Part shown: positions 45,987 to 59,341 of the stretch, piece after piece
Layout: each line of letters begins with the position of its first letter
Position numbering within the stretch: the first letter of the stretch is position 1
Made by a program: the position numbers and the translations under genes
Notes under the pieces: generated by a model
Seen by the model: the letters and a program-made list of their open reading frames with translations, nothing else
Told to the model about the DNA's origin: nothing
Database searches by the model: none
IMG/VR virus record: IMGVR_UViG_3300045988_151163
Coordinates: 10,857 to 74,856 of that record
Source of the DNA: a virus
Length of the DNA: 64,000 nucleotides
Direction: 5' to 3' (one strand)

Positions 45987-46084
45987 GAGGAAAAATGTAA
46001 AAAAATAAAAAAATATCTTTCCTAAAACAGGTAAAGGATTTAATAAAAAACGCAAGCAAATTGTATCAATCTATTGAATAAAGT

Positions 46085-46098: not shown

Positions 46099-46131
46099 TG
46101 TAAGGAACACAAGGAAAGGAAACAAGAGAAC

Positions 46132-46233
46132 ATGAGTTTGATTGAAAGAATTGAGGAAGCTATCGAGAACAAAGACACAAACGCACTTGAATTACTGCTT
46201 GTAGATTGGGATAACAATAGATTGACAAATTAG
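46132..46233 (+). CDS. hypothetical 33-aa peptide
   Basis: ATG after AAGGAAAGGAAACAAGAG; downstream of palindromic 14-mer element. Confidence 0.3.
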   Translation: MSLIERIEEAIENKDTNALELLLVDWDNNRLTN

Positions 46234-46246
46234 AAAGAGGTTAAAA

Positions 46247-46486
46247 ATGAAAGAATTTTTCAGTATCACAGAAAAGAAGTATGTTTTTGAGGTTGCGGAC
46301 TTGACTACAATTATAACAATTTTAAATGTCTTGTTTGTGGTGTGCGGTTTCGCGTGGGCACCTTGGCTTGGCATTGTGAATTGCAGTGTTTGGCTTGTGT
46401 TGAATGTAAAAGCAAAAGCGCATGTGAATAGTTATGTGACACAGATTGCACTCATTATATTAAATGCGTATTTCTTGACATTGTAG
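46247..46486 (+). CDS. small membrane protein (79 aa)
   Basis: SD GAAAGAGGT; terminator 46485..46514. Confidence 0.5.
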   Translation: MKEFFSITEKKYVFEVADLTTIITILNVLFVVCGFAWAPWLGIVNCSVWLVLNVKAKAHVNSYVTQIALIILNAYFLTL

Positions 46487-46607
46487 AGAAGATATAAAAA
46501 TCTTCTCTTTTTTAATGGGCATAATACTTTAGCGCGTTAAAGCGTTACAGTTCACTGCACTAAAGCGACTTCCGCAACCATCGAACACCTGGTCTGCTGC
46601 CCGAAAA

Positions 46608-46637
46608 ATTATACCACAGGTGACCGCACTTTGTCAA
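46608..46637 (-). promoter_or_regulatory. isolated minus-strand consensus promoter; followed on plus side by TTGCACAA..TTGTGCAA terminator 46646..46693
   Basis: rc TTGACA-18-TGGTATAAT. Confidence 0.45.
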
Positions 46638-46794
46638 GAGAAAATTTGCACAAATTTACAAGTTTTTTCAATCCCGAAATTGTGCAATTTTTTTATAAAA
46701 AACTATTGACTTTTGTTACCTAAAGTAGTATTATAATACTTGTAAGGAACAGAAACAACACGATAGCTGAAAACAGAAACTTACAAAAAAGGTG

Positions 46795-46823
46795 TTGACA
46801 AACTCAATAAGATGTGCTATAAT
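46795..46823 (+). promoter_or_regulatory. early promoter (gene 46857)
   Basis: TTGACA-17-TATAAT. Confidence 0.6.
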
Positions 46824-46856
46824 AAGTACAGAAATTAAGGAAAGAGGTAGTTGAGT

Positions 46857-46985
46857 ATGAAAGTTGTTAAAATTGAGAAGCATGGTTGCAATTATATTGT
46901 TGGTTTCGAGGGTGGCGCGGTTCGTCACTTCTGCGGCAGTGAGATTGAGTTCCAGGCTTGGCTTGAGAAGAAAACAAAAAAGTAG
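46857..46985 (+). CDS. hypothetical 42-aa protein (paralog of 47062 gene)
   Basis: promoter 46795..46823, SD GGAAAGAGGT; MKVVKIEKHGC... resembles MKMVVVKLGG... Confidence 0.45.
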   Translation: MKVVKIEKHGCNYIVGFEGGAVRHFCGSEIEFQAWLEKKTKK

Positions 46986-46995
46986 TAAAAAGGGG

Positions 46996-47024
46996 TTGAC
47001 AAACCCCACAAGGTATGGTATAAT
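46996..47024 (+). promoter_or_regulatory. early promoter (gene 47062), -35 inside GGGGTT/AACCCC hairpin
   Basis: TTGACA-17-TGGTATAAT. Confidence 0.6.
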
Positions 47025-47061
47025 AAATACATAATAAAGAAAAGGAAAGAGGTAAAAAATT

Positions 47062-47175
47062 ATGAAGATGGTTGTTGTTAAACTTGGCGGAGTTGTTGTT
47101 GACAAGGATTGCTACTCACTTGCGAAGATTCGTGAGATTGAGAAAGCTGGATTCACGGTTGAGAGTGTCAAGTAG
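47062..47175 (+). CDS. hypothetical 37-aa protein
   Basis: promoter 46996..47024, SD GGAAAGAGGT. Confidence 0.45.
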   Translation: MKMVVVKLGGVVVDKDCYSLAKIREIEKAGFTVESVK

Positions 47176-47230
47176 GCACTCTCCATAGGGTTTGAAGATT
47201 TGGTTGTTTGAAAGGAAAGAGGTAAAAATT

Positions 47231-47641
47231 ATGTTTATGGTTTTGGAAAATGGTTGTAAGACGATTGTAGTAACAAGTATTGAGGGCTTTAATATTTATA
47301 GCTATATTGACTTTATCGAGGGACTTTGGGAGAGCGATGAGTCAGACTTCTGGGATAGTAATGGCAATGAGATTGACTTCTGGGGAACAATGGAGATGAT
47401 CGCTGGCTATCTCGATATGGGCGAAACTGTGAAAACTTCAAGCAATCCGCATGAGTTCTCATATGGCGATGATTTCTTCCTTGTTGGAGATAGTGTTCAG
47501 GCTAATATCAAGCATATCGTTGATTTTATTGCTGAAGTTATTGGAACGCATGATGAGTTTACTTGCTGGGGTTTGCTTCGTATGATTGCAATGTCTGATG
47601 TTACAGAATATACAAACAATATTCATATCAAAAGAATTTAG
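47231..47641 (+). CDS. hypothetical acidic protein (136 aa)
   Basis: SD GGAAAGAGGT 8 nt before ATG 47231. Confidence 0.55.
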   Translation: MFMVLENGCKTIVVTSIEGFNIYSYIDFIEGLWESDESDFWDSNGNEIDFWGTMEMIAGYLDMGETVKTSSNPHEFSYGDDFFLVGDSVQANIKHIVDFIAEVIGTHDEFTCWGLLRMIAMSDVTEYTNNIHIKRI

Positions 47642-47648
47642 AAAGGGG

Positions 47649-47677
47649 TTGACAAAAGTAAGAGCATATGATACAAT
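47649..47677 (+). promoter_or_regulatory. promoter driving non-coding segment 47684..47790
   Basis: TTGACA-17-TACAAT; no ORF/RBS downstream. Confidence 0.5.
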
Positions 47678-47795
47678 ATAGGTACAAACAAAAGATAGGA
47701 AGAGATAGAGGCTCACCACTCAGTTGACAGGTTATCTAATAGGTGGTCGGTTGACTGAGGAGCCGAAGCCTTCCATATGGATTTAAAAAATAGTT

Positions 47796-47824
47796 GTTGA
47801 CAAATAATAATAAATATGATATAA
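47796..47824 (+). promoter_or_regulatory. promoter driving non-coding tRNA-like segment, then gene 47980
   Basis: TTGACA-17-TATAAT. Confidence 0.5.
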
Positions 47825-47838
47825 TAAATATAGAAATA

Positions 47839-47907
47839 AGGGATAGTAGGCTAAATGGCAAACCGCTAATGCGCATAGAAACAAGAGTTCGATTCTCTTC
47901 TATCTCA
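47839..47907 (+). ncRNA. tRNA-like fragment (acceptor GGGATAG/CTATCTC + T arm AAGAG-TTCGATT-CTCTT, degenerate D/anticodon arms)
   Basis: canonical T-loop and 7-bp acceptor pairing but no foldable anticodon arm. Confidence 0.3.
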
Positions 47908-47979
47908 AGCAAGGCGAACCTAGGAATGACCTTTTGCAAATAGAATAGCTAGGATAAATAAAGGAAAGAGGTAAAAAAT

Positions 47980-48229
47980 ATGAAGAAAATCTATGTAGTT
48001 AAAGAAAAAGAACTGCTATGGGGTAAAAGAAAAAGCATATTTTACAAGCAAAGATAAATGTATCGGCTTTATTCTTGGAAAAATAGAGGATTGTAAAAAA
48101 GCTTGTGATATAAAATCTGATAAATGGGATTATGAAAACAAACACTTAAATAAAAAAGATTTGTTTAATTGGATGTTTTTTGATACGCACAATAATTATT
48201 TTATAGTATCAACTATTACAGTTTATTAA
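47980..48229 (+). pseudogene. frameshifted small Cys-containing gene (MKKIYVVKEKEL...; reading frame broken in an A-tract, continues +1 to 48229)
   Basis: SD GGAAAGAGGT; 25-aa ORF stops at 48057 while a +1 frame stays open about 75 codons from about 47999 with no start of its own. Confidence 0.35.
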
Positions 48230-48237
48230 AATAAGTA

Positions 48238-48266
48238 TTGACAAACAATAGAAAGTATGTTATAAT
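48238..48266 (+). promoter_or_regulatory. early promoter (gene 48298)
   Basis: TTGACA-17-TATAAT. Confidence 0.6.
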
Positions 48267-48297
48267 AAAAAAAAGTTAAGGAAAAGAGGTAAAGAAT

Positions 48298-48462
48298 ATG
48301 ACAATAGGAATTTTTAAAAATGGGCATGTTGATTGGTTTTATAAGTGTACTGACATTGAGGTAACAGAGGGTTTTATCAGATTTAAGAAGAATAATAACA
48401 AAGATATGCTTTGTTTCTTTTTTCGTAATATTGAAGGATATGCTATTAGGGAAGAGGTGTAG
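48298..48462 (+). CDS. hypothetical 54-aa protein
   Basis: promoter 48238..48266; SD AAAAGAGGT. Confidence 0.5.
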   Translation: MTIGIFKNGHVDWFYKCTDIEVTEGFIRFKKNNNKDMLCFFFRNIEGYAIREEV

Positions 48463-48465
48463 CAG

Positions 48466-48600
48466 ATGGAAATTATAATTGCTTTTGGTTGCGGATGCGT
48501 GTTTATTATACCGCCATTGATCGCGGCAAGTGTCAGCGATGCAGTTCAGCGCAAGAAAAAACGCAACGAAATTTTGAAAAATTTTGGAATTAAGCCTTGA
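48466..48600 (+). CDS. 44-aa membrane peptide
   Basis: SD GGAAGAGGT; hydrophobic core. Confidence 0.4.
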   Translation: MEIIIAFGCGCVFIIPPLIAASVSDAVQRKKKRNEILKNFGIKP

Positions 48601-48625
48601 CAAATTAGTCAAGGCATGGTATAAT
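48597..48625 (+). promoter_or_regulatory. early promoter (gene 48658); -35 embedded in perfect palindrome GCCTTGAC-N6-GTCAAGGC
   Basis: TTGACA-17-TGGTATAAT. Confidence 0.6.
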
Positions 48626-48657
48626 AAATACATAATAAAGGAAAGGGAGTAAAGAGT

Positions 48658-48843
48658 ATGAAAGTTGCAAGAAAGATTACTGTTCCAAAAAAAGAATATG
48701 AGGTTCTCGATAAATTTCTTGATATGTGTAATGAAATAGGATTAGAAACTGATGAGCTTGTTGATTTGCTTAATGCAATTTCTAATAAAGATTCAGAATT
48801 TGACTGGGCAGGGATTACATATGATATTGAGTACTTAGCTTAG
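48658..48843 (+). CDS. hypothetical 61-aa protein
   Basis: promoter 48597..48625; terminator 48842..48867. Confidence 0.55.
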   Translation: MKVARKITVPKKEYEVLDKFLDMCNEIGLETDELVDLLNAISNKDSEFDWAGITYDIEYLA

Positions 48844-48879
48844 GGGCTATATAGCCCCTAATTTTTTTACAACAAAAGC

Positions 48880-48957
48880 TTGACATATCGCGGCAGTTGT
48901 GATATAATGGAATTTTGAGATGAAAATACCCTAGAAAAAATTTTTCATTTTTCTCTT
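48880..48957 (+). ncRNA. promoter (TTGACA-17-TATAAT) followed after about 10 nt by hairpin+T-run terminator: predicted about 45-nt non-coding transcript
   Basis: no ORF; TGAAAAT/ATTTTCA stem + TTTTTCTC. Confidence 0.4.
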
Positions 48958-49048
48958 GACAAATTAAATGAAATATGATATACTGGGCGGCCCGCGCACC
49001 ATCGCAGCGGGCCGAAATATTATACCACACATGACTCAGGTTTGTCAA
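48956..49048. repeat. convergent-promoter unit U2: plus promoter 48956..48984, GC hairpin 48985..49014, minus-strand promoter 49019..49048
   Basis: TTGACA-17-TATACT; GGGCGGCCCGCG..CGCAGCGGGCCG; rc TTGACA-18-TGGTATAAT. Confidence 0.6.
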
Positions 49049-49066
49049 GACTAATTTTCAAAAAAG

Positions 49067-49113
49067 TTATCCACAATTTACTATCCCGAAATTGTGGATA
49101 ACTTTGTGGATAA
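49067..49113. promoter_or_regulatory. three consensus DnaA boxes (TTATCCACA at 49067..49075; TGTGGATAA at 49094..49102 and 49105..49113), two forming a hairpin with TCCCGAA loop
   Basis: exact match to TTATNCACA consensus, 3 copies in 47 bp. Confidence 0.5.
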
Positions 49114-49119
49114 CTCCTA

Positions 49120-49148
49120 TTGACAAATAGGATTCTATGCGGTATAAT
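49120..49148 (+). promoter_or_regulatory. early promoter (gene 49183)
   Basis: TTGACA-17-TATAAT. Confidence 0.55.
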
Positions 49149-49182
49149 ACATACATAAGGTAAAGGAAGGGCGGTTGATAAT

Positions 49183-49326
49183 ATGATGGTATTTGAAGTT
49201 ATGGGGTACACGATAGTTGGATATGGGTATCGCTGGACAGTCACCCGCAATGGTGTACACGTTGGTACATATTCTGATACATGGGTAAATATCAGAAATG
49301 CAATTATTTTGAAAAAAATCAAATAA
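49183..49326 (+). CDS. hypothetical 47-aa protein
   Basis: promoter 49120..49148. Confidence 0.4.
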   Translation: MMVFEVMGYTIVGYGYRWTVTRNGVHVGTYSDTWVNIRNAIILKKIK

Positions 49327-49330
49327 GGGG

Positions 49331-49359
49331 TTGACAAATACCCCTAAACATGGTATAAT
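49331..49359 (+). promoter_or_regulatory. early promoter (gene 49394)
   Basis: TTGACA-17-TGGTATAAT. Confidence 0.6.
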
Positions 49360-49393
49360 CATTATAGAAAATAAAGAAAGGAAGTTGTTAGAT

Positions 49394-49624
49394 ATGACAT
49401 TTTTAGGTTTTTGTGGAATTGGTGGAGCATGTGTTATTGCTTTCTCTTGTGGATGGTTCTTTTTGATGGTAGCATATGCTATTTTTGCTGAGTGTGCAGG
49501 ACTTCCGATGCCTTTTGATGAAGATTATTTGATTTGTAAAATCAATCTGTATTTTTGGCTGGGTACTATGTGTTTAGGTATCATTCTTTGGCTTATTGTT
49601 GCTATTGCTAGTCTTTTTAATTAA
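49394..49624 (+). CDS. small membrane protein (76 aa)
   Basis: promoter 49331..49359; SD AAAGGAAG. Confidence 0.55.
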   Translation: MTFLGFCGIGGACVIAFSCGWFFLMVAYAIFAECAGLPMPFDEDYLICKINLYFWLGTMCLGIILWLIVAIASLFN

Positions 49625-49628
49625 AGTA

Positions 49629-49657
49629 TTGACAAATATCTTTAAATATGATATAAT
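49629..49657 (+). promoter_or_regulatory. early promoter (gene 49690)
   Basis: TTGACA-17-TATAAT. Confidence 0.6.
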
Positions 49658-49689
49658 AAATATAGAAAATGAAAGAGAGGTAAGAGATT

Positions 49690-49854
49690 ATGGAAAAAGG
49701 TGGAATTAGTTTTAGTGGTTTATTGTTTATTACTCTTTTGGTTTTGAAGTTGGTAAAAGTAATTTCAATATCATGGGTTTGGGTTTTTGCTCCTTTGTGG
49801 ATTCCATTGGGCATCACACTCATTTGTATTATTATTGGAATATTTATTCATTAG
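49690..49854 (+). CDS. 54-aa membrane peptide
   Basis: promoter 49629..49657; SD AAGAGAGGT. Confidence 0.5.
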   Translation: MEKGGISFSGLLFITLLVLKLVKVISISWVWVFAPLWIPLGITLICIIIGIFIH

Positions 49855-49871
49855 AAAGAGGGGTAATAGTT

Positions 49872-50105
49872 ATGAGAGAAGTTATTTATAAGGTAACAAA
49901 GCCAGGACGTGTAGGTTTTGCAAAACGCAAAACCCTCGAACATGCACAGAGAACTGCACAGAATATCCACGGAGAATACAAGGCGATTCTTGTAGACCCC
50001 GAAATTGCAACAAAGACTTTGATTGCAAGTTCGCCTATGCGTCAGCGTATGATTGCACAGTTTGGAAGAGTGCACCCTAGTTTGAAAAATAGGGTTGACA
50101 AGTAG
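49872..50105 (+). CDS. hypothetical basic protein (77 aa)
   Basis: SD AGAGGGGT 8 nt upstream. Confidence 0.5.
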   Translation: MREVIYKVTKPGRVGFAKRKTLEHAQRTAQNIHGEYKAILVDPEIATKTLIASSPMRQRMIAQFGRVHPSLKNRVDK

Positions 50106-50123
50106 TCAACCCTATGGTATAAT
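50095..50123 (+). promoter_or_regulatory. early promoter (gene 50149); -35 in palindrome GGGTTGAC-N5-GTCAACCC
   Basis: TTGACA-17-TGGTATAAT. Confidence 0.6.
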
Positions 50124-50148
50124 AGATATAGAAAGTGAGGTAAACAAA

Positions 50149-50457
50149 ATGAAAATTTATATTATTCATGAAGATAATGATGGTGTTATTGGAGTAGCAG
50201 ATAGTTATGAAAGTGCAGTTCAATTTCTTATTGATAAAGAGTGGATAACAGAAGATTTTGAAATTTGGAATAGAGAAAACAATTACAGCCGTCCTCTTTA
50301 TACTTTTGAAATCAAGCCAGAAGACATTAAAGCATGGAATATTAGCAAGTTTAATGATTTCTTTGATGGAGATTTTGAGATTGAAGAGGCTAATCTCATA
50401 ACAGATGCACGTAATAAAATTGAGGAGGTGCTTGCCAACGATGGGTTGGAGTCATGA
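50149..50457 (+). CDS. hypothetical acidic protein (102 aa)
   Basis: promoter 50095..50123. Confidence 0.55.
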   Translation: MKIYIIHEDNDGVIGVADSYESAVQFLIDKEWITEDFEIWNRENNYSRPLYTFEIKPEDIKAWNISKFNDFFDGDFEIEEANLITDARNKIEEVLANDGLES

Positions 50458-50608
50458 TTATACTTTTGATTATCTTAAAGAGCAGGCTAACCAAAAATCA
50501 AAAGATGCAACATGTGACAAGATTCTTAGCCACATCAATAGAAATCCTTGCATAACAGTAGCCGAGTTGAGAAAATTTATCATTGACTTAAAAAATAATG
50601 GTTTTTAA
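50441..50608 (+). CDS. hypothetical 55-aa protein
   Basis: GAGGAGG SD 10 nt upstream; bidirectional terminator 50591..50622. Confidence 0.5.
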   Translation: MGWSHDYTFDYLKEQANQKSKDATCDKILSHINRNPCITVAELRKFIIDLKNNGF

Positions 50609-50622
50609 CCATTATTTTTTTT
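50591..50622. terminator. bidirectional intrinsic terminator (AATAATGGTT/AACCATTATT with A-run and T-run)
   Basis: perfect 10-bp stem flanked by A6 and T8. Confidence 0.6.
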
Positions 50623-50632
50623 GAAATTAAAC

Positions 50633-50724
50633 TTGACAAAGTTCCTTTGATATGATATAATGGCGGCGCGCTTGCGGTTGGGGCGCGCCGCAATATTATA
50701 CCACATGTACCCGCAGTTTGTCAA
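50633..50724. repeat. convergent-promoter unit U3: plus promoter 50633..50661, GC hairpin 50662..50691, minus promoter 50695..50724; terminator 50743..50779
   Basis: TTGACA-17-TATAAT; GGCGGCGCGC..GCGCGCCGC; rc TTGACA-18-TGGTATAAT. Confidence 0.6.
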
Positions 50725-50911
50725 GACTAATTTTTGAAAAAATTGCACAAAAATTTTTCTCCCGAATTGTGCAATTTTTACGAAAAGAATCTGATAAAAA
50801 ACGCAAGAATTTTGTATCAATCCATGCTTAAAAGTAGTATTATAATACTTGTAAGGAAGAGATAACAACATGATAGTTGAAAACAAACTTCCTAAAGAAA
50901 ATAAAAAAATG

Positions 50912-50940
50912 CTTGACAAAGCAAACTAAATGTGCTATAA
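50912..50940 (+). promoter_or_regulatory. promoter followed by about 95 nt non-coding leader, then promoter 51041..51069 for the exonuclease gene
   Basis: TTGACA-17-TATAAT twice in tandem. Confidence 0.5.
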
Positions 50941-51101
50941 TAAATACATACAAGGGAGCTGATAAAGCTTGAAACAAAACCCTGTCGAGTGCGTAAGGAA
51001 GTCAAGGTACAGTAAAGGTTGAAAAAATTTGAAAAAGGTCTTGACAAACTCCCTTGAATATGTTATACTTAGTACATAAGGTAAAGGAAAGAGGTAAAAA
51101 A

Positions 51102-51800
51102 ATGGAAAAAAAGATTGATAGAAGAATTAAGTACAGAGCAGTTGTTGATACAGAAACTTGCCCTGTTGACAAAGACTTGAAAGATGTAATTCCTAGTAAT
51201 ATGTGGACGTATGATTTTGGTTTCGCAATCGTAGATAAGAATGGCAACGTATATGAAGCATATAGCTTTGTCAATGCGGATATCTTTATCGGAGAGCGTG
51301 AGTTGATGAAGTCTGCCTATTATGCCAACAAGATTCCGCAGTATTGGGAAGATATCAAAGCAGGCAAGCGCACACTTGCAACATTTTACAATATTAGAAA
51401 GAAATTCTTTGAAGTGTGCGAAGAATACGGAGTAGAAGAAGTTTACGCCCACAATATGCGATTCGATCATGGAACATTGAATACAACAGAAAGATGGTTG
51501 ACAAAATCAAAATACCGCTATTTTTTCCCATCACAATATATTATTTGTGATACTTTGAAGATGGCAAGGGATGTTATTCTAAAAATGTCAACATACAAAA
51601 GATTTTGTGCTGAAAATGGCTATGTTACAAAGAATGGGCAGCCAAGAGCAACCGCTGAAATTCTTTACAGATTCATCAAAAAAGATAATGATTTTATAGA
51701 AAGCCACACCGCACTTGAAGATGTGCTAATCGAGAAAGAGATTCTTGCCTATTGTTTCAAGCAACATAAAAAAATGCGTCGGCTCTTGTGGGAAAATTAA
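51102..51800 (+). CDS. DEDDh-family 3'-5' exonuclease (DnaQ/RNase T-like)
   Basis: Exo I VVDTETCP, Exo II YAHNMRFDHG, Exo III HTALEDV; promoter 51041..51069. Confidence 0.7.
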   Translation: MEKKIDRRIKYRAVVDTETCPVDKDLKDVIPSNMWTYDFGFAIVDKNGNVYEAYSFVNADIFIGERELMKSAYYANKIPQYWEDIKAGKRTLATFYNIRKKFFEVCEEYGVEEVYAHNMRFDHGTLNTTERWLTKSKYRYFFPSQYIICDTLKMARDVILKMSTYKRFCAENGYVTKNGQPRATAEILYRFIKKDNDFIESHTALEDVLIEKEILAYCFKQHKKMRRLLWEN

Positions 51801-51809
51801 AATTCCCAC

Positions 51810-51838
51810 TTGACAAACCGCCTAAAGTGTGGTAATAT
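51810..51838 (+). promoter_or_regulatory. early promoter (gene 51870)
   Basis: TTGACA-17-TAATAT. Confidence 0.5.
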
Positions 51839-51869
51839 ATAATAGAAGAAAGAAAGGAGAAGAAAAGGT

Positions 51870-52193
51870 ATGAAAACAAGAGCGCAGTTGATAGAAGAAA
51901 TCATGGCTGAGTTTGAAAAAGACGGCGAACCAGTAAGCGAAGAAGAAGCTGGTAAAATTGCTGATTTAGAAATCAAAGCCAAGGAAAACAATGTTAAACA
52001 CTATGAGCGTAGCATAAAGCCACGAGACAAGCCAACAAAAGAGAGAAAAATAGACGTAGAAAAATTAAAAATTTTAGAACAAATCCAAGCTACCCTTGAG
52101 GAATACGGATTTACAGTGAAAAGGGAGCGAGAGGTTGCGCTACATTTTGGAAACTATGAGTTGAAACTCATTAGACATAAAAAAAGTAGTTGA
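51870..52193 (+). CDS. hypothetical K/E-rich protein (107 aa)
   Basis: promoter 51810..51838; SD AAAGGAG. Confidence 0.55.
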   Translation: MKTRAQLIEEIMAEFEKDGEPVSEEEAGKIADLEIKAKENNVKHYERSIKPRDKPTKERKIDVEKLKILEQIQATLEEYGFTVKREREVALHFGNYELKLIRHKKSS

Positions 52194-52218
52194 CAAACAA
52201 TAAAAAATGTGATATAAT
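52190..52218 (+). promoter_or_regulatory. promoter with only an 8-codon ORF downstream; tandem with 52281..52309
   Basis: TTGACA-17-TATAAT. Confidence 0.45.
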
Positions 52219-52280
52219 AATTATAGAAAGTGAGGGAAGGAAAAATGAGAAGTCCGCCGAAAAGAAAATAAAAAAAATAG

Positions 52281-52309
52281 TTGACAAAATAAAAAAAGTA
52301 TGATATAAT
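52281..52309 (+). promoter_or_regulatory. early promoter (gene 52345)
   Basis: TTGACA-17-TATAAT. Confidence 0.6.
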
Positions 52310-52344
52310 AAATATATAATAAAGAAAGAAAGAGGTAGATAGTT

Positions 52345-52716
52345 ATGGAAAAGAAGATTACACAGAAGGAAATGTTCAATGAGGTTATCGCACTTGCTAC
52401 TGCAAACGGTAGAGAGGACATTGTGAAGTTTGCCGAGGAAAGAATCGCGGCACTCGATAAGAAGTCCGCAAACCGTAAGCCATCGAAGAATCAGACTGCA
52501 AACGAGGAAATCAAGGCTAAAATCCTGGAGTTCCTTGAGGGTTCGGACGGAAATACTTGTACCGAAATCAAAGATGGTCTTTCCGGTGACTACTCACTCA
52601 ATAAGATTGTAGCACTGATGACGCAGTTGTCAGGCGGTGCAAAGCCAAAGGATGGTGTTGAGTATCCAGTGGTTAGATTTGCTGAGGGTAAGGTGGTTAA
52701 GTTCCGCCTTGCCTAA
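52345..52716 (+). CDS. hypothetical protein (123 aa), paralog of the 55380 gene; winged-helix-like
   Basis: shares ANRKPSKNQTANEEIKAKIL...CTEI...YSLNKIVALMTQL with 55380..55778; high GC; promoter 52281..52309. Confidence 0.55.
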   Translation: MEKKITQKEMFNEVIALATANGREDIVKFAEERIAALDKKSANRKPSKNQTANEEIKAKILEFLEGSDGNTCTEIKDGLSGDYSLNKIVALMTQLSGGAKPKDGVEYPVVRFAEGKVVKFRLA

Positions 52717-52741
52717 GCAGTAAAAAATTTCATAAAGGGGC

Positions 52742-52770
52742 TTGACAAACAAGCCCCTATATGATAAAAT
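52742..52770 (+). promoter_or_regulatory. promoter of the two-tRNA unit; -35 in hairpin GGGGCTTG/CAAGCCCC
   Basis: TTGACA-17-TAAAAT, tRNA 5' end 13 nt downstream. Confidence 0.55.
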
Positions 52771-52783
52771 ATAATTAAGACAT

Positions 52784-52921
52784 GGGGATGTAGCTCAGTG
52801 GTAGAGCGGTGGCTCGTTAAGCCACGTCACATTGATGATACCCCTCTAAAAGCACTTTTGACTTAATCAACCAAGGGTGGGCGTTAGAGACGGGGCGAGA
52901 GTTCGATTCTCTCCATTCCCA
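52784..52921 (+). tRNA. aberrant tRNA-like gene: canonical acceptor, D, anticodon (loop UCGUUAA, GUU=Asn, C at position 33) and T arms, but a 71-nt insertion at the variable-loop position (52826..52896)
   Basis: GGGGATG/CATTCCC acceptor pairing, D arm GCTCAGTGGTAGAGC, anticodon stem GTGGC/GCCAC, T arm GAGAG-TTCGATT-CTCTC; driven by promoter 52742..52770. Confidence 0.45.
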
Positions 52922-52930
52922 ATTAAAAAT

Positions 52931-53002
52931 AGGCGTGTGGCTCAATGGAAAAGCAACGGTCTCCAAAACCGCGATTTACAGGTTCAAATCCTGTCGCGCC
53001 TG
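52931..53002 (+). tRNA. tRNA-Trp (CCA)
   Basis: acceptor AGGCGTG/CGCGCCT, anticodon arm CGGT-CTCCAAA-ACCG, T arm ACAGG-TTCAAAT-CCTGT; GGTCTCCAAAACC is typical of tRNA-Trp. Confidence 0.75.
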
Positions 53003-53036
53003 CTAATACAGTAAAAGATTGTTACCTCCTTTCCTT

Positions 53037-53066
53037 GGGTGCGAGAAATCGCACCCTATTTTTTTG
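53037..53066 (+). terminator. intrinsic terminator after tRNA-Trp (GGGTGCGA/TCGCACCC + T7)
   Basis: hairpin + T-run. Confidence 0.65.
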
Positions 53067-53075
53067 AAAAAGTGC

Positions 53076-53170
53076 TTGACAAAAATTGATTTTTGTGTTA
53101 TAATGGGCGGCGCGCCATAGGTCGCGGCGCGCCGAACTTCCAGTATACCATAATCCCGGCTTTTTGTCAA
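53076..53170. repeat. convergent-promoter unit U4: plus promoter 53076..53104, GC hairpin 53105..53134, minus promoter 53142..53170
   Basis: TTGACA-17-TATAAT; GGGCGGCGCGCC..GCGGCGCGCCG; rc TTGACA-17-TATACT. Confidence 0.6.
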
Positions 53171-53215
53171 GGGTTTTTTGAAAAATTTTTTTTATTTTTT
53201 TTATCCCAAAATGCT

Positions 53216-53244
53216 TGACAAATTAAAATCTATCCTGTATAATA
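53216..53244 (+). promoter_or_regulatory. early promoter (gene 53277)
   Basis: TTGACA-17-TATAAT. Confidence 0.6.
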
Positions 53245-53276
53245 AGTATGTAAGGTAAAGGAAAGGGGTAATAAGT

Positions 53277-53690
53277 ATGAAGCATGTATTTGATAGAAGA
53301 ACTTATATTAAGTTTAATGGTTGGGAATGTTTTAAAGATACATCTATTTTTAAAGATTTGCAGTTTTTACCAGAAGAAAAAGCAACTGAAAAGTTATTCT
53401 ATATTAGAGATTTTAAAGAGTTGGTAACAAAAGTACAGAATGGGGTAATCTGTAATGCAGAAATGGACGAAACATTTTTTAAACATCGTCCAAAGGTGGT
53501 ACTTCATACTGCGGATTTGTTTAATAATTATTTTTCTATCACAGAAAAAAATTTTGCACCATTAGAAATCAAAATTGAGTATATAGAAGATAAAAACACT
53601 TCATTAAAAACTCTTTCAGGAATGCTTCCTGCTGATGATTTTGTGGAGTATCTAAAAGATAGAGAAATTTCTTTAGAAAAATTTTTATAA
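53277..53690 (+). CDS. hypothetical protein (137 aa)
   Basis: promoter 53216..53244. Confidence 0.55.
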   Translation: MKHVFDRRTYIKFNGWECFKDTSIFKDLQFLPEEKATEKLFYIRDFKELVTKVQNGVICNAEMDETFFKHRPKVVLHTADLFNNYFSITEKNFAPLEIKIEYIEDKNTSLKTLSGMLPADDFVEYLKDREISLEKFL

Positions 53691-53695
53691 AACTA

Positions 53696-53757
53696 TTGAC
53701 AAATAATATTAAACATGATATAATAAAGAAAAGATAAGGAAAGAGGTAAAAAATATG
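53696..53757 (+). repeat. about 60-bp promoter+leader+RBS block, near-identical direct repeat of 53912..53975
   Basis: TTGACAAATAATATTAAACATGATATAATAAAGAAAAGATAAGGAAAGAGGTAAAAAA in both. Confidence 0.6.
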
Positions 53758-53895
53758 ACAGTTAAAGATTTAATTAGAATATTAGAACAGTATCCATCAG
53801 ATACAGAAGTTTCTGTCTATTATGACGGCGGTGTCGCGGATAACGCCCATGAACCTGAGATAGATTATGATAATTCTAATATTATAATATGGTAA
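53755..53895 (+). CDS. hypothetical 46-aa protein
   Basis: promoter 53696..53724 (duplicate of 53912 block). Confidence 0.4.
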   Translation: MTVKDLIRILEQYPSDTEVSVYYDGGVADNAHEPEIDYDNSNIIIW

Positions 53896-53911
53896 TAAAA
53901 TAAAAAAATAC

Positions 53912-53975
53912 TTGACAAATAATATTAAACATGATATAATAAAGAAAAGATAAGGAAAGAGGTAAAAAAGATATG
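53912..53975 (+). repeat. second copy of the promoter+leader block (drives the HAD phosphatase gene)
   Basis: see 53696..53757. Confidence 0.6.
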
Positions 53976-54431
53976 AAAACATTAGTATTTGACATGGATG
54001 GAACAATCGCAAATTTCTACGGAGTAGAGGGCTGGCTTAAGGATTTACACAACGAGAATCCGCGCCCTTACATTATGGCTGAACCACTTTGGGATATGGC
54101 TTTGCTTGGTTCTCTTCTCTGTTGTTTGAAGAGCGTTGGTTACAGAATCGTTGTCACATCTTGGTTGTCTAAGGATTCTACAAAAGACTTTGACGAAGTT
54201 GTGAGAACTGCAAAAAGAGATTGGCTTACTAGATATAACTTCCCTTTTGATGAAATCCACCTTGTGAAGTATGGCACAACAAAAGCAAACTGTACACGCA
54301 AGCATGGTGGCAATCAGATTCTTTTTGATGATAACGCAAAGGTTCGCAAGGGTTGGAGCTTGGGAGAAACAATCGACCCGACCGCAGAAAATATTATTGA
54401 CTTTTTAGCTGATTTACTCTTGACAGAGTAG
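53973..54431 (+). CDS. HAD-superfamily phosphatase, 5'(3')-deoxyribonucleotidase-like (152 aa)
   Basis: motif I FDMDGT, motif II VVTSW, motif III KRDW, motif IV LFDDN. Confidence 0.65.
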   Translation: MKTLVFDMDGTIANFYGVEGWLKDLHNENPRPYIMAEPLWDMALLGSLLCCLKSVGYRIVVTSWLSKDSTKDFDEVVRTAKRDWLTRYNFPFDEIHLVKYGTTKANCTRKHGGNQILFDDNAKVRKGWSLGETIDPTAENIIDFLADLLLTE

Positions 54432-54448
54432 GTCAGCGGTGGTATAAT
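54420..54448 (+). promoter_or_regulatory. early promoter (gene 54475)
   Basis: TTGACA-17-TGGTATAAT. Confidence 0.55.
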
Positions 54449-54474
54449 AGGTATAGAAAGTGAGGTAGATAAGA

Positions 54475-54666
54475 ATGGTAATAGGAATGAAGAAATCTTT
54501 TTTCCCAACCTATAAGCAAGCTATTGAGTATGTATCAGTAATTTGTTCTCAAAGAATGGGTAATATAAAAGTTGGGTGTAAAAGAGATAAAACACTAAAA
54601 AAACCTTGGTTTGTTGAGTATACCGCTTGGTCAGAAGATTTTATTAAAAGAGAGGGATTGAAATAA
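54475..54666 (+). CDS. hypothetical 63-aa protein
   Basis: promoter 54420..54448. Confidence 0.5.
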   Translation: MVIGMKKSFFPTYKQAIEYVSVICSQRMGNIKVGCKRDKTLKKPWFVEYTAWSEDFIKREGLK

Positions 54667-54677
54667 TGAAAAAACAC

Positions 54678-54706
54678 TTGACAAATATTTATGGTTATGC
54701 TATAAT
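54678..54706 (+). promoter_or_regulatory. early promoter (gene 54739)
   Basis: TTGACA-17-TATAAT. Confidence 0.6.
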
Positions 54707-54738
54707 TATTATAGAAAATGAAAGAGAGGTAAAATAAA

Positions 54739-54915
54739 ATGGCAAAAATTAAAGAAGTAATTGAGATAACAAAAGAAGAAAAAGAAATTCTTGAAAAAGC
54801 AGATGATATTTTAACTTCAATAACATTGGCATTAGGAGAAAAGCATCTTAATGATTTTAATTATCCAAGCATACTTGATCGAATGTCAATTACTTTTAAT
54901 GCATTAACAAAATAG
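54739..54915 (+). CDS. hypothetical 58-aa acidic protein
   Basis: promoter 54678..54706; terminator 54913..54935. Confidence 0.45.
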   Translation: MAKIKEVIEITKEEKEILEKADDILTSITLALGEKHLNDFNYPSILDRMSITFNALTK

Positions 54916-54946
54916 GCAAAATGCCTATTTTTTTTACTTAAAACTC

Positions 54947-55038
54947 TTGACAAACAATAGAAAGTATGCTATAATGGCGCGGCGTGCACGCTCCTCGCAC
55001 GCCGAGATATTATACCACATAGCTCTGGCATTTGTCAA
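54947..55038. repeat. convergent-promoter unit U5: plus promoter 54947..54975, GC hairpin 54976..55006, minus promoter 55009..55038; terminator 55047..55093
   Basis: TTGACA-17-TATAAT; GGCGCGGCGTGC..GCACGCCGAG; rc TTGACA-18-TGGTATAAT. Confidence 0.6.
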
Positions 55039-55099
55039 TAGGAAAATTGCACAAATTTTTTAACCTTGTGCATCCCGAATTTTGTGCATTTTTCCGATA

Positions 55100-55330
55100 T
55101 TGATTTTCTATAAATATTTTGTTATAATGTATTTACAAGGTAAGGAAAGAAAACAAAATAGCAACCTCGGTCGTGAGGAAAACAAATTTTGAAACTTTCA
55201 AAAACCTATTGACAAACATTAAAAAATATGTTATAATAAGCATGTAAGGTCAAGGAAGATTAAAGGTTCTAAACCGAAAAGAAAATAATAAAAAAAAATG
55301 CTTGACAAACCTTACAAAATATGTTATAAT
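55100..55330 (+). promoter_or_regulatory. three tandem promoters (55100..55128 TTGATT-17-TATAAT; 55209..55237; 55302..55330) separated by about 70-100 nt non-coding spacers, upstream of gene 55380
   Basis: each with 17-nt spacing and TRTG extended -10. Confidence 0.5.
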
Positions 55331-55379
55331 ATATATGTAACAAAGAGTTAAGAATTTATTAAGAAAAGGGGTATGTTTT

Positions 55380-55778
55380 ATGACAACAACAAACAAGACA
55401 ACAAAGAAGCAGTACTTTGAAATGATTATGGCTATTGAGGGCGTGTCCGAGGATATTAAGGACTTCTGTGCAAGAGAGATTGCAACCCTTGAGAAGAAGA
55501 ACGCCAACCGTAAGCCGTCTAAGAATCAGACCGCAAACGAGGAAATCAAGGCGAAGATTCTTGATGTACTTGAGGACTCTAAGCCTATGACCTGTACAGA
55601 GATTATGACCGCCTTTAATGGCGAGTATTCACTCAATAAGATTGTAGCACTGATGACTCAGCTTGCTGGTCCAGCAAAGGATGAAAACAGAGATGCTACT
55701 AAGGTATATCTTGTTCGCCGTATTCCAGATGGTAAGAAGATGACTTTCGCCCTTAATACCGAGGGTATCGAGGGTTAG
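55380..55778 (+). CDS. hypothetical protein (132 aa), paralog of 52345..52716
   Basis: shared core motif; three tandem promoters upstream (55100, 55209, 55302). Confidence 0.55.
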   Translation: MTTTNKTTKKQYFEMIMAIEGVSEDIKDFCAREIATLEKKNANRKPSKNQTANEEIKAKILDVLEDSKPMTCTEIMTAFNGEYSLNKIVALMTQLAGPAKDENRDATKVYLVRRIPDGKKMTFALNTEGIEG

Positions 55779-55831
55779 TAAAAACAATGTGCGGTCGGTG
55801 GGGTTCTCCCACCGAAAACCGCAATTAAAGG

Positions 55832-55860
55832 TTGACATTCTCAACCTCTTGTGATATAAT
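55832..55860 (+). promoter_or_regulatory. early promoter (gene 55892); -35 in palindrome AGGTTGA-N5-TCAACCT; preceded by nested GC hairpin 55789..55823
   Basis: TTGACA-17-TGATATAAT. Confidence 0.55.
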
Positions 55861-55891
55861 ATAAGTACAGTAAAGGAAAGGGGTTGTGAAT

Positions 55892-56278
55892 ATGAATATC
55901 AAGTTGTGTGAAGATTGCGAAAACCTTATCTGTAAGAATGGCAAAATGCTTTGCCATGAGATGTGGGATAAACCTTGTGAAGAGTTGGAAGAATGTCCCG
56001 AAGGATTCACAATGGAAGAGGTTGTCGAGTTGGAAGAGAAAACCAAAGGACAGAGAGTTGACCACGGGATTGCCCAGGAAAAGCGCAAGGATTCAAAGCC
56101 TAGGACAGTGAAGATTTCTGATGAAAAAAAAGCAGTTTTCCATGATATTTTAACCAATTTGCAAAGTATTTATGGCGAAAAGGTTGAGATTCTTAAGGAA
56201 AACAAGCTGATTTCTTTAGAAATCAATGGTCGCAAGTTCAAAATCGACTTAATTGAGCAGAGAAAACCTAAGAAATAA
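55892..56278 (+). CDS. Cys-rich (zinc-finger-like) acidic protein (128 aa)
   Basis: CEDCENLICKNGKMLCHEMWDKPCEELEEC; promoter 55832..55860; terminator 56287..56340. Confidence 0.5.
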   Translation: MNIKLCEDCENLICKNGKMLCHEMWDKPCEELEECPEGFTMEEVVELEEKTKGQRVDHGIAQEKRKDSKPRTVKISDEKKAVFHDILTNLQSIYGEKVEILKENKLISLEINGRKFKIDLIEQRKPKK

Positions 56279-56341
56279 AGGTTTTTAGAGGAAAATTCCT
56301 TAAAAAATGAGGAATTTTCCTCTATTTTTTTATTTTTTTAC

Positions 56342-56401
56342 TTGACAAAGCACATAAAATGTGGTATAATGTCGCGGCGTTGACCACCGGGCAACGCCGA
56401 G
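56342..56401 (+). repeat. half unit U6: plus promoter 56342..56370 + GC hairpin 56371..56401, no partner minus promoter
   Basis: TTGACA-17-TGGTATAAT; GTCGCGGCGTTG..CAACGCCGAG. Confidence 0.5.
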
Positions 56402-56611
56402 TTCCCACGACCAGACCCTATATGGCTTTTTTTCCTGGTTGTTTGAAATCTGAAAACCGCCATACGGTTCCCGAAATTAGATGTTTGACTTACTTTTGTT
56501 GTGAATTTGCTCGTTTTCTATCTGAAACGTAAAAATATCCGTCAGAATAAAAAATGGCTTACTGTATCGAATTACAGTGATTCTATTGATAAATGCCTCA
56601 GCGCATCTCTC

Positions 56612-56672
56612 TTGACATTTTTTCGTATTTTTGATATAATTATATAGGGGAAGTAAATTAGCTTCGTTTTTT
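56612..56672 (+). ncRNA. promoter (56612..56640) immediately followed by a hairpin+T-run terminator (56650..56672): predicted about 25-nt transcript
   Basis: TTGACA-17-TATAAT then GAAG-TAAATTAG-CTTC-GTTTTTT. Confidence 0.4.
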
Positions 56673-56769
56673 CTTATTCTCATATAAAAACGAACAAATA
56701 CTCGCAACAATAGAAAAAACATAGTTACAGCTAATTACAGTTTTACTACTGGTATATGCTTTCGTGCCT

Positions 56770-56798
56770 TTGACACTTCTGAAAAATTATTATATAAT
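56770..56798 (+). promoter_or_regulatory. early promoter (gene 56839)
   Basis: TTGACA-17-TATAAT. Confidence 0.55.
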
Positions 56799-56838
56799 AT
56801 ATATAGAAAATGAAATAGAAAGAAGAGGTTATAAGACT

Positions 56839-57207
56839 ATGGGTAAAACAATAGCAGAGCTTATTGCAGAAGGCAAGTCAGTTGAAGAGATTAGCAAGAT
56901 GGCGCAGGCGGAAGCCGATGCAGTTGCCGCAGCCAAGGATAAGAGAAAGATTGATACTGAAGAAGTGAATGCCGTAAGAGAATATCTGATTGCTGATGTG
57001 TTGGATTATATGGAAGCTATTACTGGAATTGATATTTCAGATGAAGACGCAGCTGAGATTACGAAGGACCTGACTGATAAGATGAAGGTTATCGAGCTTT
57101 TCATTCAGGCAATGGATTTGACTGAGAGCAAGCCTAAGCCTAAGGTAAAGAAGGAGCCGGAGTCAGATTCTATGGCGGATTTGTTTAATCTTTTCAGACT
57201 CTTTTAG
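56839..57207 (+). CDS. hypothetical acidic protein (122 aa)
   Basis: promoter 56770..56798; strong terminator 57220..57256. Confidence 0.5.
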   Translation: MGKTIAELIAEGKSVEEISKMAQAEADAVAAAKDKRKIDTEEVNAVREYLIADVLDYMEAITGIDISDEDAAEITKDLTDKMKVIELFIQAMDLTESKPKPKVKKEPESDSMADLFNLFRLF

Positions 57208-57219
57208 TCTAAAGTAATT

Positions 57220-57256
57220 AGTCCCTGTACACATTACATGTACAGGGACTTTTTGC
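57220..57256 (+). terminator. strong intrinsic terminator ending the plus-strand early region (12-bp stem AGTCCCTGTACA + T5)
   Basis: perfect stem + T-run. Confidence 0.65.
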
Positions 57257-57349
57257 GCGGGTTCTCGTCTAGGGATCTCTTTAATGAAGAATAAAAAGAC
57301 TAAAACGATAACGGTGACGGGAACATGGTCCAGGGTATGCGCGGCCAGA

Positions 57350-57480
57350 CAAAAACATTATCCAGAGACAAAAACACTATCTAGCACTATCTAGCACTAT
57401 TCAAAAATAAAAACTCTATTTAACACTATTCAAAATATTATCCAGAGACAAAATGCTATCCAACACTATTCAAAGATAAA
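57350..57480. repeat. iteron-like direct-repeat cluster (2x ATTATCCAGAGACAAAA, 2x CACTATCTAG, 3x AACACTATTCAAA)
   Basis: read directly; sits in convergent intergenic gap between plus early region and minus module. Confidence 0.6.
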
Positions 57481-59185: not shown

Positions 59186-59341
59186 AGTGCCGATTAAGCA
59201 CTTTTCCTTAGAAAAAAGTGCCAATTAAGCACTTTCTGCTCATTAAAAAGTGCTTATTAAGCACTTTTTCTTGTATATAAAAGTGCCGATTAAGCACTTT
59301 TTAATAGACTCCTTGTATCTAAAAAGTGCCATTTTAGCACT
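59186..59341. promoter_or_regulatory. array of five evenly spaced (31-43 bp) palindromes AAAAGTGCC-N7-GCACTTTT (59186, 59217, 59249, 59282, 59325): operator/centromere-like
   Basis: five near-identical inverted repeats between minus-strand operons. Confidence 0.6.

Follow-up and report, generated by a model that had tools for sequence, protein, structure and literature searches.

Promoter-hairpin modules between the early genes of uncultured gut phages and their possible role as an antisense control layer

Background

Short cis-antisense RNAs transcribed from convergent promoters are known from phages, for example the OOP RNA of lambda, which acts against cII, and the sar RNA of P22, which is transcribed from Psar facing Pant. 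In such systems a strong promoter downstream of or inside an early unit points back into it, yields a non-coding product and interferes face to face with its opponent. In this paper we describe a predicted arrangement of a similar kind in a 64,000-nucleotide (nt) stretch of viral DNA (positions 10,857 to 74,856 of IMG/VR record IMGVR_UViG_3300045988_151163, one strand), which we call the window and whose first letter is position 1. The element in question is a rightward consensus promoter at 56342 that is directly followed by a GC-rich hairpin, and it is compared with a family of intergenic modules in which such a hairpin adjoins a reversed, leftward promoter (P-) and, in the lineage of the window, also a rightward one (P+). 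Unlike OOP and sar, these modules occur in many copies per genome; every copy has its own upstream motif and a 5' GC hairpin whose sequence is free to vary, and the lineage of the window adds a third, anti-antisense promoter about 20 bp away.

Stable 5' structures are a further point of comparison. In Firmicutes, 5' stem-loops or bound ribosomes stabilise RNAs, decay proceeds from the 5' end via RppH and RNase J1, and RppH of B. subtilis requires at least two unpaired 5' nucleotides and prefers at least three (PMC3997798). The aprE leader, the SP82 early-RNA stabiliser and STAB-SD share with the module a Firmicute setting and a stable structure at, or a few nucleotides from, the predicted 5' end (PMC3997798), but they reside on mRNAs and several of them act via ribosome binding, whereas the module RNAs are predicted to be untranslated.

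The module also resembles intrinsic and bidirectional terminators in having a perfect GC-rich hairpin in intergenic DNA just downstream of a gene; however, most copies, including all of those in the window, lack a U tract, and the position of the hairpin is tied to the -10 box and not to the gene end. Similarly, the early promoters of phage N4 are hairpin-forming inverted repeats clustered in the early region, yet these have stems of 5-7 bp and 3-nt loops and need a giant virion polymerase, whereas here the flanking signals are of the sigma-A type, stems (8-9 bp) and loops (9-11 nt) are longer and no virion polymerase was detected. Finally, the solitary repeat units known as RNA anti-CRISPRs (Racr) lie immediately downstream of a promoter, have no associated cas genes and are highly expressed (PMC10651486). 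A phage promoter directly before a short GC-rich hairpin without an open reading frame (ORF) is common to Racr (PMC10651486) and to the units of the window, which indeed have a promoter directly upstream and no array-like tandem repeats. Unlike Racr, however, the modules show no similarity to any CRISPR repeat family in Rfam and have dozens of unrelated stems with long loops, and their make-up includes an upstream motif as well as an opposing promoter.

The phage clade concerned is the subject of a single paper, on its member phAss-1, and this paper does not mention promoters, hairpins or repeats (PMC10607447), and no description of the module was found in Rfam or in the literature. Antisense promoters, convergent-promoter interference and 5' hairpins are already known as ingredients. 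What appears to be new is their combination in a standard module that recurs in many copies, has a promoter class to itself and, in this lineage, uses one palindromic leader for two face-to-face promoters.

A module family with its own promoter class

Related loci (L001 and others) were gathered via a neighbouring 248-aa early protein, by a DNA pattern scan of IMG/VR and by a pattern scan of GTDB genomes. The fetched loci, which comprise IMG/VR phages, phAss-1 and contigs of Clostridia metagenome-assembled genomes (MAGs), hold 152-162 distinct module copies. Most of the GTDB matches fall on MAG contigs that carry the labels Clostridia, Eubacteriales, Oscillospiraceae, Ruminococcus, Christensenellaceae or Lachnospiraceae, and these labels are a lead, not proof, towards a Clostridia host for the phages with the module. 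The module belongs to an uncultured clade of long-tailed phages, probably of gut Clostridia. Its parts follow a fixed order: the terminator of a rightward gene is succeeded after 5-15 nt by the GC hairpin, then by (G)AAAT(TTCC), the reversed P-, a stretch of 33-36 nt that often contains TTGCACAAATTT, the motif TCCYRAA(TTTGTGCAA) and the next rightward promoter. In the core of the module, TCCYRAA stands 33-35 nt beyond the -35 box of P-. The constant promoter of the family is P- and not P+, which is lineage-specific (33 of 122 modules) and always stands 1-5 nt from the stem.

In 122 of 152 modules a hairpin of -10 kcal/mol or better lies within the first 50 nt that P- would transcribe. A stricter set holds 95 modules, 61 of them with perfect stems; in these 61 copies the stem ends 3-9 nt from the -10 box of P-, and 46 different perfect stem sequences are found. 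Most stems measure 7-10 bp and most loops 9-11 nt, and the hairpins reach a median z of -3.1 against composition-matched shuffles. Across 16 register-fixed members, chosen for having a stem, all eight pairs change on both sides, and pairing is 100% versus 58% in shuffles, none of 500 of which reach 100%. Compensatory changes also occur between orthologues of genomes that are 94-95% identical (e.g. CGGCGTGC/GCACGCCG to CGGCGAGC/GCTCGCCG), where indels blur the substitution counts and only four double changes are clear.

The composition of the loops is strand-asymmetric (plus-strand C 180 versus G 113) and opposite to the local GC skew, which points to a strand-specific role at the RNA level. 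The wobble asymmetry of the stems (four G.T versus two A.C) involves too few pairs to tell which strand's RNA carries the hairpin. Words resembling a Shine-Dalgarno (SD) sequence are no commoner in the loops than composition predicts, the distance from -10 box to stem is not significantly correlated with stem length once duplicates are removed, and the units gave no Rfam match at either gathering or permissive E-values. The 3' flank of the hairpin begins with A's (AAAT, AAATTTCC) in about 90% of the copies.

The fetched loci contain 1003 distinct consensus-like promoters, 190 of them with a GC hairpin following and 813 others. At 32-37 nt beyond the -35 box, TCCYRAW is present in 58% of the 190 hairpin promoters versus 6% of the 813 others, and its position peaks sharply at 33-34 nt; P- forms a promoter class of its own. 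In 115 of 147 cases P- faces, on the side that it would transcribe, a gene of the opposite orientation, and an SD-linked ORF (at least 30 aa, at most 250 nt away) belongs to 16 of 115 P- RNAs, compared with 46 of 67 adjacent rightward promoters. As is typical of cis-antisense RNAs, the predicted P- RNAs come from a promoter convergent with a coding unit, would overlap that unit and are non-coding. Within 260 nt, the antisense sequence of P- holds no canonical terminator in 44 of the 61 copies. The -10 boxes stand 3-9 nt (P-) and 1-5 nt (P+) from the stem, which would put the typical start, inferred from the -10 position, at or just inside the stem base.

Although no genes are encoded on the minus strand of the early block, signals resembling terminators are found there. 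A minus-strand hairpin with T run overlaps the -35 box in six of 34 rightward promoters versus 1.3 +/- 1.1 expected, and three of these were also called by the terminator scan. Such terminator-like sites, in -35 inverted repeats preceded by an A run, lie at 45618-45637, 46992-47007, 48593-48614, 49326-49345, 50089-50115 and 50908-50923. Inverted repeats followed by T runs were further recognised just upstream of P- at 49048, 50724, 55038 and 46637, the automatic search for such repeats being confounded by AT-rich sequence; the one at 49049-49120 folds with -23.7 kcal/mol (z = -5.9). The wobble count in the repeat upstream of P- (34 A.C versus 18 G.T) weakly supports a hairpin in minus-strand RNA. 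Taken together, the antisense context, the scarcity of ORFs and the minus-strand terminator-like signals suggest that leftward non-coding transcription occurs and is bounded.

Full units and lone leftward promoters in the window

Four full units of one design are present, at 48956-49048, 50633-50724, 53076-53170 and 54947-55038. In each, P+ is followed after 1-4 nt by the GC hairpin and after another 3-7 nt by the reversed P-, which has an 18-bp spacer and TGTGGTATAAT. The hairpins have stems of 8-11 bp, loops of 7-11 nt and -14 to -22 kcal/mol; the stem sequences differ among the four units and each one pairs, and the sequence that follows is AAAT or AACTTCC, not a U tract. As the -10 boxes of P+ and P- are 33-37 bp apart, the inferred start sites lie about 20 bp apart and face to face, so that two polymerases with usual footprints could not occupy them together.

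Unit A (48956-49113) consists of P+ at 48956-48984, the hairpin at 48988-49014, reversed P- at 49019-49048 and TCCCGAAA at 49084. Its inverted repeat of 14-17 bp has a T run on the minus strand, and its arms are made of three perfect DnaA boxes (49067-49075, 49093-49101 and 49105-49113; TTATCCACA once, TGTGGATAA twice), the only ones of the window; where unit A has DnaA boxes, the other units have TTGCACAA/TTGTGCAA arms. Unit B (50633-50785) comprises P+ at 50633-50661, the hairpin at 50663-50691, reversed P- at 50695-50724 and an inverted repeat TTGCACAA..TCCCGAATTGTGCAA. In unit C (53076-53211), P+ at 53076-53104, the hairpin at 53108-53134 and reversed P- at 53142-53170 are followed by TCCCAAAA at 53204, and in unit D (54947-55095), P+ at 54947-54975, the hairpin at 54980-55004 and reversed P- at 55009-55038 by an inverted repeat with TCCCGAAT at 55073. 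The stem of unit D shows a compensatory change from T-A to A-T in L001.

Lone leftward promoters lie at 44672-44700, 45957-45986 and 46608-46637, and the latter two belong to the P- class, with TCCTAAAA at 46020 (element 45957-46027, minus strand) and with an upstream inverted repeat and TCCCGAAA at 46672 (element 46608-46695, minus strand), respectively. The RNA predicted from P- at 45986 would be antisense to the gene at 45701-45892 and reach the minus-strand terminator at 45637-45618.

The one-sided copy at 56342

The promoter at 56342-56370 (plus strand; TTGACA-17-TGgTATAAT) matches the consensus at 12 of 12 positions and is identical in L001 and in a second relative, L002. Four nucleotides beyond its -10 box lies the GC hairpin CGGCGTTG / ACCACCGGG / CAACGCCG (56375-56399), with the stem at 56375-56382 / 56392-56399 and ACCACCGGG as loop; it folds with -15.4 kcal/mol, and only 7 of 1000 composition-matched shuffles fold equally well. 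It is not an intrinsic terminator by its sequence, as it is followed by AGTTCCCACG and has no U tract. A sequence-only reading of this DNA had described the element as a consensus promoter with a directly adjoining GC hairpin, a half unit without reverse promoter and without a gene for 440 bp, related to the convergent-promoter units nearby, and each of these points was borne out. No reverse consensus promoter lies to the right of the hairpin. Between 56372 and the ATG at 56839 (about 465 nt) there is no credible gene, since the ORFs listed there lack a ribosome-binding site (RBS), one of them starting within the promoter and another, an 81-aa minus-strand ORF, having no start codon in L002.

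The kinship with the full units is direct: 56342-56485 aligns without gaps to 53076-53218 of unit C, through the promoter, the hairpin, the GA(G/A)(T/C)T(C/T)CC flank, the position of the reversed promoter, GGCTTTTT..GG TT(G/T)TTTGAAA and the TCCC(G/A)AAA motif. The leader element AGTTCCCACGACCAGA..CCTGGTTGTTTGA (56400-56449, plus strand) is colinear with the reversed promoter at 53142-53170, but the P- hexamers are destroyed (-10 ACGACC for AGTATA, -35 TTTCCT for TGTCAA); it includes a T7 run at 56427-56433 that is preceded by a 3-bp hairpin only. The upstream motif TCCCGAAA (56469-56476, plus strand) stands 62 nt from the hairpin flank, as it does in the unit at 53076. About 30 nt of the leader after the hairpin are shared with the first bases transcribed from the hairpin-less P- promoters at 45986 and 46637. 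By its sequence, then, the element at 56342 is best described as a one-sided copy of the conserved intergenic module in which only P+ has been kept.

A pattern search for the leader of this half unit found copies in four contigs only. A similar one-sided form occurs in L013/L014, whose 248-aa protein is only 53% identical to that of the window; there the stem is wholly replaced by GGGTCGC/GCGACCC at the same position. The region 56342-56640 is 98.5-100% identical to L001/L002, compared with 88-96% for the flanking genes, and the stretch at 56408-56611 (plus strand), without an RBS-linked ORF, is likewise better conserved than these genes. Because the intergenic DNA of the block is in general better conserved than the genes, this shows constraint but not a specific RNA gene; the conservation of the 270 nt after the promoter would fit a transcribed or otherwise functional leader. 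More generally, in a comparison of three related genomes (54600-57300 against L001 and L002), intergenic regulatory DNA is 97-100% identical and the early genes 46-97%. The regulatory scaffold is more stable than the genes under its control.

The element is followed in tandem by a second consensus promoter at 56612-56640 (plus strand, 12/12, identical in the relatives) and by a third at 56770-56798, which precedes the last early gene (ATG 56839, 122 aa, to 57207; the whole 56770-57207, plus strand). The promoters at 56342, 56612 and 48880 are predicted sigma-A promoters with all 12 hexamer positions (-35 TTGACA, -10 TATAAT) and a 17-bp spacer, inside the usual 17 +/-1, and those at 56342-56370 and 56612-56640 also have the extended -10 TG, which is common in Firmicutes. 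For 56612 and 48880, the sequence-only reading was right about the promoter but not about its product. It had predicted a transcript of about 25 nt that ends at a hairpin with T run after 56612, and one of about 45 nt after 48880. The former hairpin (56650-56672, plus strand; GAAGT/GCTTC, then GTTTTTT) has five pairs including a G.U and folds with -4.6 kcal/mol (z = -1.1); the latter, an A/U-rich weak hairpin (48917-48926 / 48942-48951) with a 15-nt loop after the promoter at 48880-48908 (element 48880-48951, plus strand, in tandem with the next unit), folds with -5.8 kcal/mol (z = -0.95). The terminator scan called neither of them, nor anything on the plus strand between 56342 and 56839. As both hairpins are no better than shuffles and were not called, the 25-nt and 45-nt transcripts are unsupported, and with no convincing terminator after either, 56612 and 48880 look like the distal (upstream) members of tandem promoter sets. 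With no terminator called downstream, 56342 would most simply give an RNA with a hairpin cap that runs on past 56612 and 56770 and enters the gene at 56839-57207, where read-through from 56612 would likely end up as well.

The early block and its promoters

The minus-strand late or structural genes, among them those for the portal, the terminase and a 2886-aa tape measure protein, occupy 1-42,400 of the window, and the early-looking block of short plus-strand genes 42,500-57,200, in a genome with a GC content of 28-37%. Among deposited records, uncultured human-gut contigs and phAss-1 come closest, and Enterococcus EF1-like phages are next (about 32-39% protein identity). A BLAST search with the units and the DNA around them found no cultured close relative among deposited phages, the matches being phAss-1 and faecal contigs only. 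Enterococcus phage EF1 is a distant cultured relative via its portal protein and the 248-aa early protein, and it has no promoter-hairpin units. Pfam and PHROGs searches with the flanking early proteins gave nothing informative.

The window contains 45 sites of the form TTGACA-17-TATAAT with at most one mismatch, compared with 1.9 expected from shuffles, and nearly all sigma-A consensus sites lie inside the early block. Most consensus promoters are followed after 25-50 nt by a strong RBS and an ORF, while 13 of the 35 on the plus strand have no ORF, all but one of these at 44.8-56.8 kb. Two more consensus promoters without a clear ORF are found at 47649-47790 and 50913-51040; about 90 nt after the former show long-range complementarity (GAGGCTC..CTCAGTTGAC..GTTGACTGAG..GAGCC), just upstream of a tRNA-like gene. 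This tRNA-like sequence (47840-47907) was found with Rfam at 40 bits and has a shortened anticodon arm and its own consensus promoter. A second Rfam match, with 55 bits, is a tRNA at 52784-52921 with a 67-nt insert after the anticodon arm, which ARAGORN does not call; a normal tRNA-Trp lies nearby at 52931-53003, and 43251-44129 encodes a Thg1-like tRNA-His guanylyltransferase homologue (phrog_4717, E = 4.5e-82).

Tandem promoter sets recur at 52190/52281 and 55209/55302. Mini-ORFs lie between these promoters, at 52245-52271 (MRSPPKRK*, with a strong RBS) and 55259-55288 (IKGSKPKRK*, starting at ATT). The genes downstream of the two mini-ORFs, 52345-52716 and 55380-55778, are paralogues, and the mini-ORFs themselves may encode leader peptides. 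A second promoter-like element, a palindrome spanning the -10 box (AGTAGTATTATAATACTTGTAAGGAA), occurs at 46082-46107, 46724-46749 and 50833-50858, with AACGCAAG..TTGTATCAATC ahead of two of the three copies; such elements could be middle promoters or promoters under the control of an operator. The sequence CTTTAGYGCGTTAAAG is present three times in the intergenic DNA of the left part of the block (44742-44757, 45193-45208 and 46527-46542) and is likely a protein-binding site. The promoters of the late genes (42453-42481, 37911-37939, 26743-26771, 17377-17405 and 10233-10261, minus strand) have sigma-A hexamers as well and share a distinctive spacer, AAA(A)TTTTTnGnTATAAT; the gene that opens the late operon (41339-42424) matches a phage sigma-factor family (phrog_5767). 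Beyond the early block, between convergent gene blocks, iteron-like direct repeats are found at 57355-57474 (ATTATCCAGAGACAAAA twice, CACTATCTAG twice and CACTATTCAAA three times), and a tandem repeat (3.6 copies of 32 bp) follows about 1.7 kb beyond them, at 59186-59301; both are candidate origin or protein-binding regions.

Interpretation and alternatives

The overall claim of the sequence-only reading, that the region is rich in promoters that transcribe almost nothing and may titrate RNA polymerase, found no support in the computed results. The supposed terminators are weak, the hairpin at 56375-56399 lacks a U tract, and the leader behind it is conserved; seen across the family, the constant partner of the hairpin points the other way and has its own upstream motif, and most P- copies meet no canonical terminator for at least 260 nt. 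These promoters are more likely to be a control layer than a set that makes nothing. The reading that we favour, tentatively, is that the modules form a layer of antisense transcription and interference over the early genes, with RNAs capped by a 5' hairpin. P- RNAs would limit or time the expression of early genes, both as antisense partners and through head-on interference, and P+ would work against P- by occlusion and RNA complementarity, since the polymerases of the two promoters would exclude each other and their RNAs would be complementary at the 5' ends. The GC hairpin, as part of the RNA, would act as a 5'-terminal cap that guards untranslated transcripts from 5'-end-dependent decay: with predicted starts at or inside the stem base there would be few or none of the unpaired 5' nucleotides that this decay needs in Firmicutes. 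At 56342, the P+ RNA would begin in the hairpin, cross the conserved 465-nt leader and two promoters, and enter the last early gene. The fixed upstream motif suggests that P- is regulated and not a constitutive roadblock.

A more far-reaching version, which we regard as rather doubtful, is a two-strand early programme, in which each rightward unit is shadowed by a non-coding antisense unit with its own promoter class and minus-strand terminators, and in which P+ adds an anti-antisense third layer in this lineage. Its parts would be TCCYRAA near -80, the consensus sigma-A hexamers and the 5' GC-hairpin leader, with the minus-strand terminators concealed within inverted repeats and within the -35 regions of sense promoters. 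Such a programme could time the host-takeover genes or limit their dosage in a hard-wired way, with a factor that binds the motif as the switch.

Several points weigh against an antisense layer with capped RNAs. The start sites are predicted from the -10 position, and at a spacing of 3-4 nt part of the stem would be untranscribed. G.U or A.C pairs number only six in about 800 stem pairs, which fits selection on both strands or at the DNA level as well as selection on RNA. Two P- promoters of the window (45986 and 46637) have no GC hairpin, and a plus-strand T run (TTTTTCT or TTTTTTT) comes after the hairpin in the L011-L014 and L020 lineages, which makes the hairpin look like an ordinary terminator there. 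Strong antisense and consensus sense promoters that fire together would need a timing factor, for which the putative binder of the upstream motif is the sole candidate. There is no clear reason for antisense control downstream of tRNA genes, where unit C is located, and the module is carried by no cultured relative.

The T runs of the L011-L014 and L020 lineages, the Watson-Crick pairing of the stems on both strands and the constant position of the module, with the canonical terminator of one gene before it and the promoter of the next gene after it, are what would be expected if the module were an insulator, i.e. a back-up bidirectional terminator with an opposing promoter that blocks or collides with read-through, so that early units are kept independent and the RNAs have no function. 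We consider this unlikely, because about 90% of the copies have an A-rich 3' flank and no U tract, a canonical terminator is already present 5-15 nt upstream of modules that lie after genes, the loop composition is strand-asymmetric, and the fixed upstream motif suggests a regulated P-. Somewhat less likely still, in our view, are polymerase sinks or RNA factories, in which the GC-rich DNA at the start of transcription keeps the host's RNA polymerase in abortive cycles, or in which only tiny hairpin RNAs (about 30-60 nt) are released and serve as abundant decoys whatever their sequence; in a possible variant, tiny structured RNAs would arise from longer transcripts by trimming down to the stable 5' hairpin. 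This would account for the consensus promoters without ORF, for face-to-face pairs that by their geometry cannot both be occupied, and for hairpins that, with -15 to -23 kcal/mol, are the most stable local structures; moreover, a palindromic stem would give a near-identical hairpin from either strand, so that two promoters would double the output. However, the hairpin lacks a U tract and no terminator was called there, and a pure DNA trap needs no inverted repeat, although pairing is the conserved feature. Sequestering the host enzyme would be of no obvious help to a phage whose late genes use sigma-A-type promoters, about 45 promoters per genome copy are few compared with the cellular polymerase pool, and both the conserved upstream motif and the antisense orientation of P- would be left unexplained.

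Elements that act as DNA have also been considered, such as transcription-primed origins (with an R loop on the GC segment and a hairpin in the displaced strand), cruciforms or protein-binding sites. A strong promoter directly before a segment of 76-86% GC in a genome of 31-35% GC, the near-perfect Watson-Crick stems on both strands and the DnaA boxes that flank one unit would suit such a role, which is nevertheless very improbable: 4-9 copies in about 13 kb are too many for origins, the DnaA boxes are restricted to unit A of this lineage while TTGCACAA arms occur elsewhere, the iteron-like repeats at 57355-57474 are a better origin candidate, and no virion polymerase that reads hairpins was found, the 2886-aa ORF being the tape measure and a 2384-aa ORF matching nothing. 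Hardly credible, finally, is a function as Racr, in which each promoter with its hairpin would pass for a CRISPR repeat and titrate proteins of the Cas6 or Cas5 type. The two -10 boxes are 29-37 nt apart, which is the size of a repeat, and two copies start with GTCGCG and many end with GAAAT, which may resemble type I-C repeats. Yet none of the units has a match among the CRISPR-DR families of Rfam, even at E up to 5, mimicry needs a specific repeat and not 46 different stems with up to nine in 13 kb of one phage, the loops have 9-11 nt, the type I-C 3' handle GTGGATTGAAAT is absent on direct reading, and the close -10 box may leave part of the 5' arm untranscribed.

Two further candidates were rejected. 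N4-like hairpin promoters do not agree with stems of mostly 7-10 bp, loops of mostly 9-11 nt and the lack of a virion polymerase among the genes found. A 6S-like RNA that sequesters polymerase is long and mostly double-stranded with a central bubble resembling an open promoter; the RNAs predicted here are a short hairpin followed by unstructured sequence, without a match in Rfam.

Conclusions

The module is easily recognised in sequence and could therefore mark early regions and gene orientation in metagenomic phage contigs, probably of phages with a Clostridia host. Its promoter pairs with starts 20 bp apart and its hairpins of free sequence are compact parts with which promoter interference and the protection of RNA 5' ends could be tested in Firmicutes. 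If the hairpin RNAs were decoys, they would point to a new host factor that recognises short GC hairpins. If the antisense layer favoured here is true, abundant uncultured gut phages would control their early genes by genome-wide, modular antisense promoters and shared palindromic leaders.

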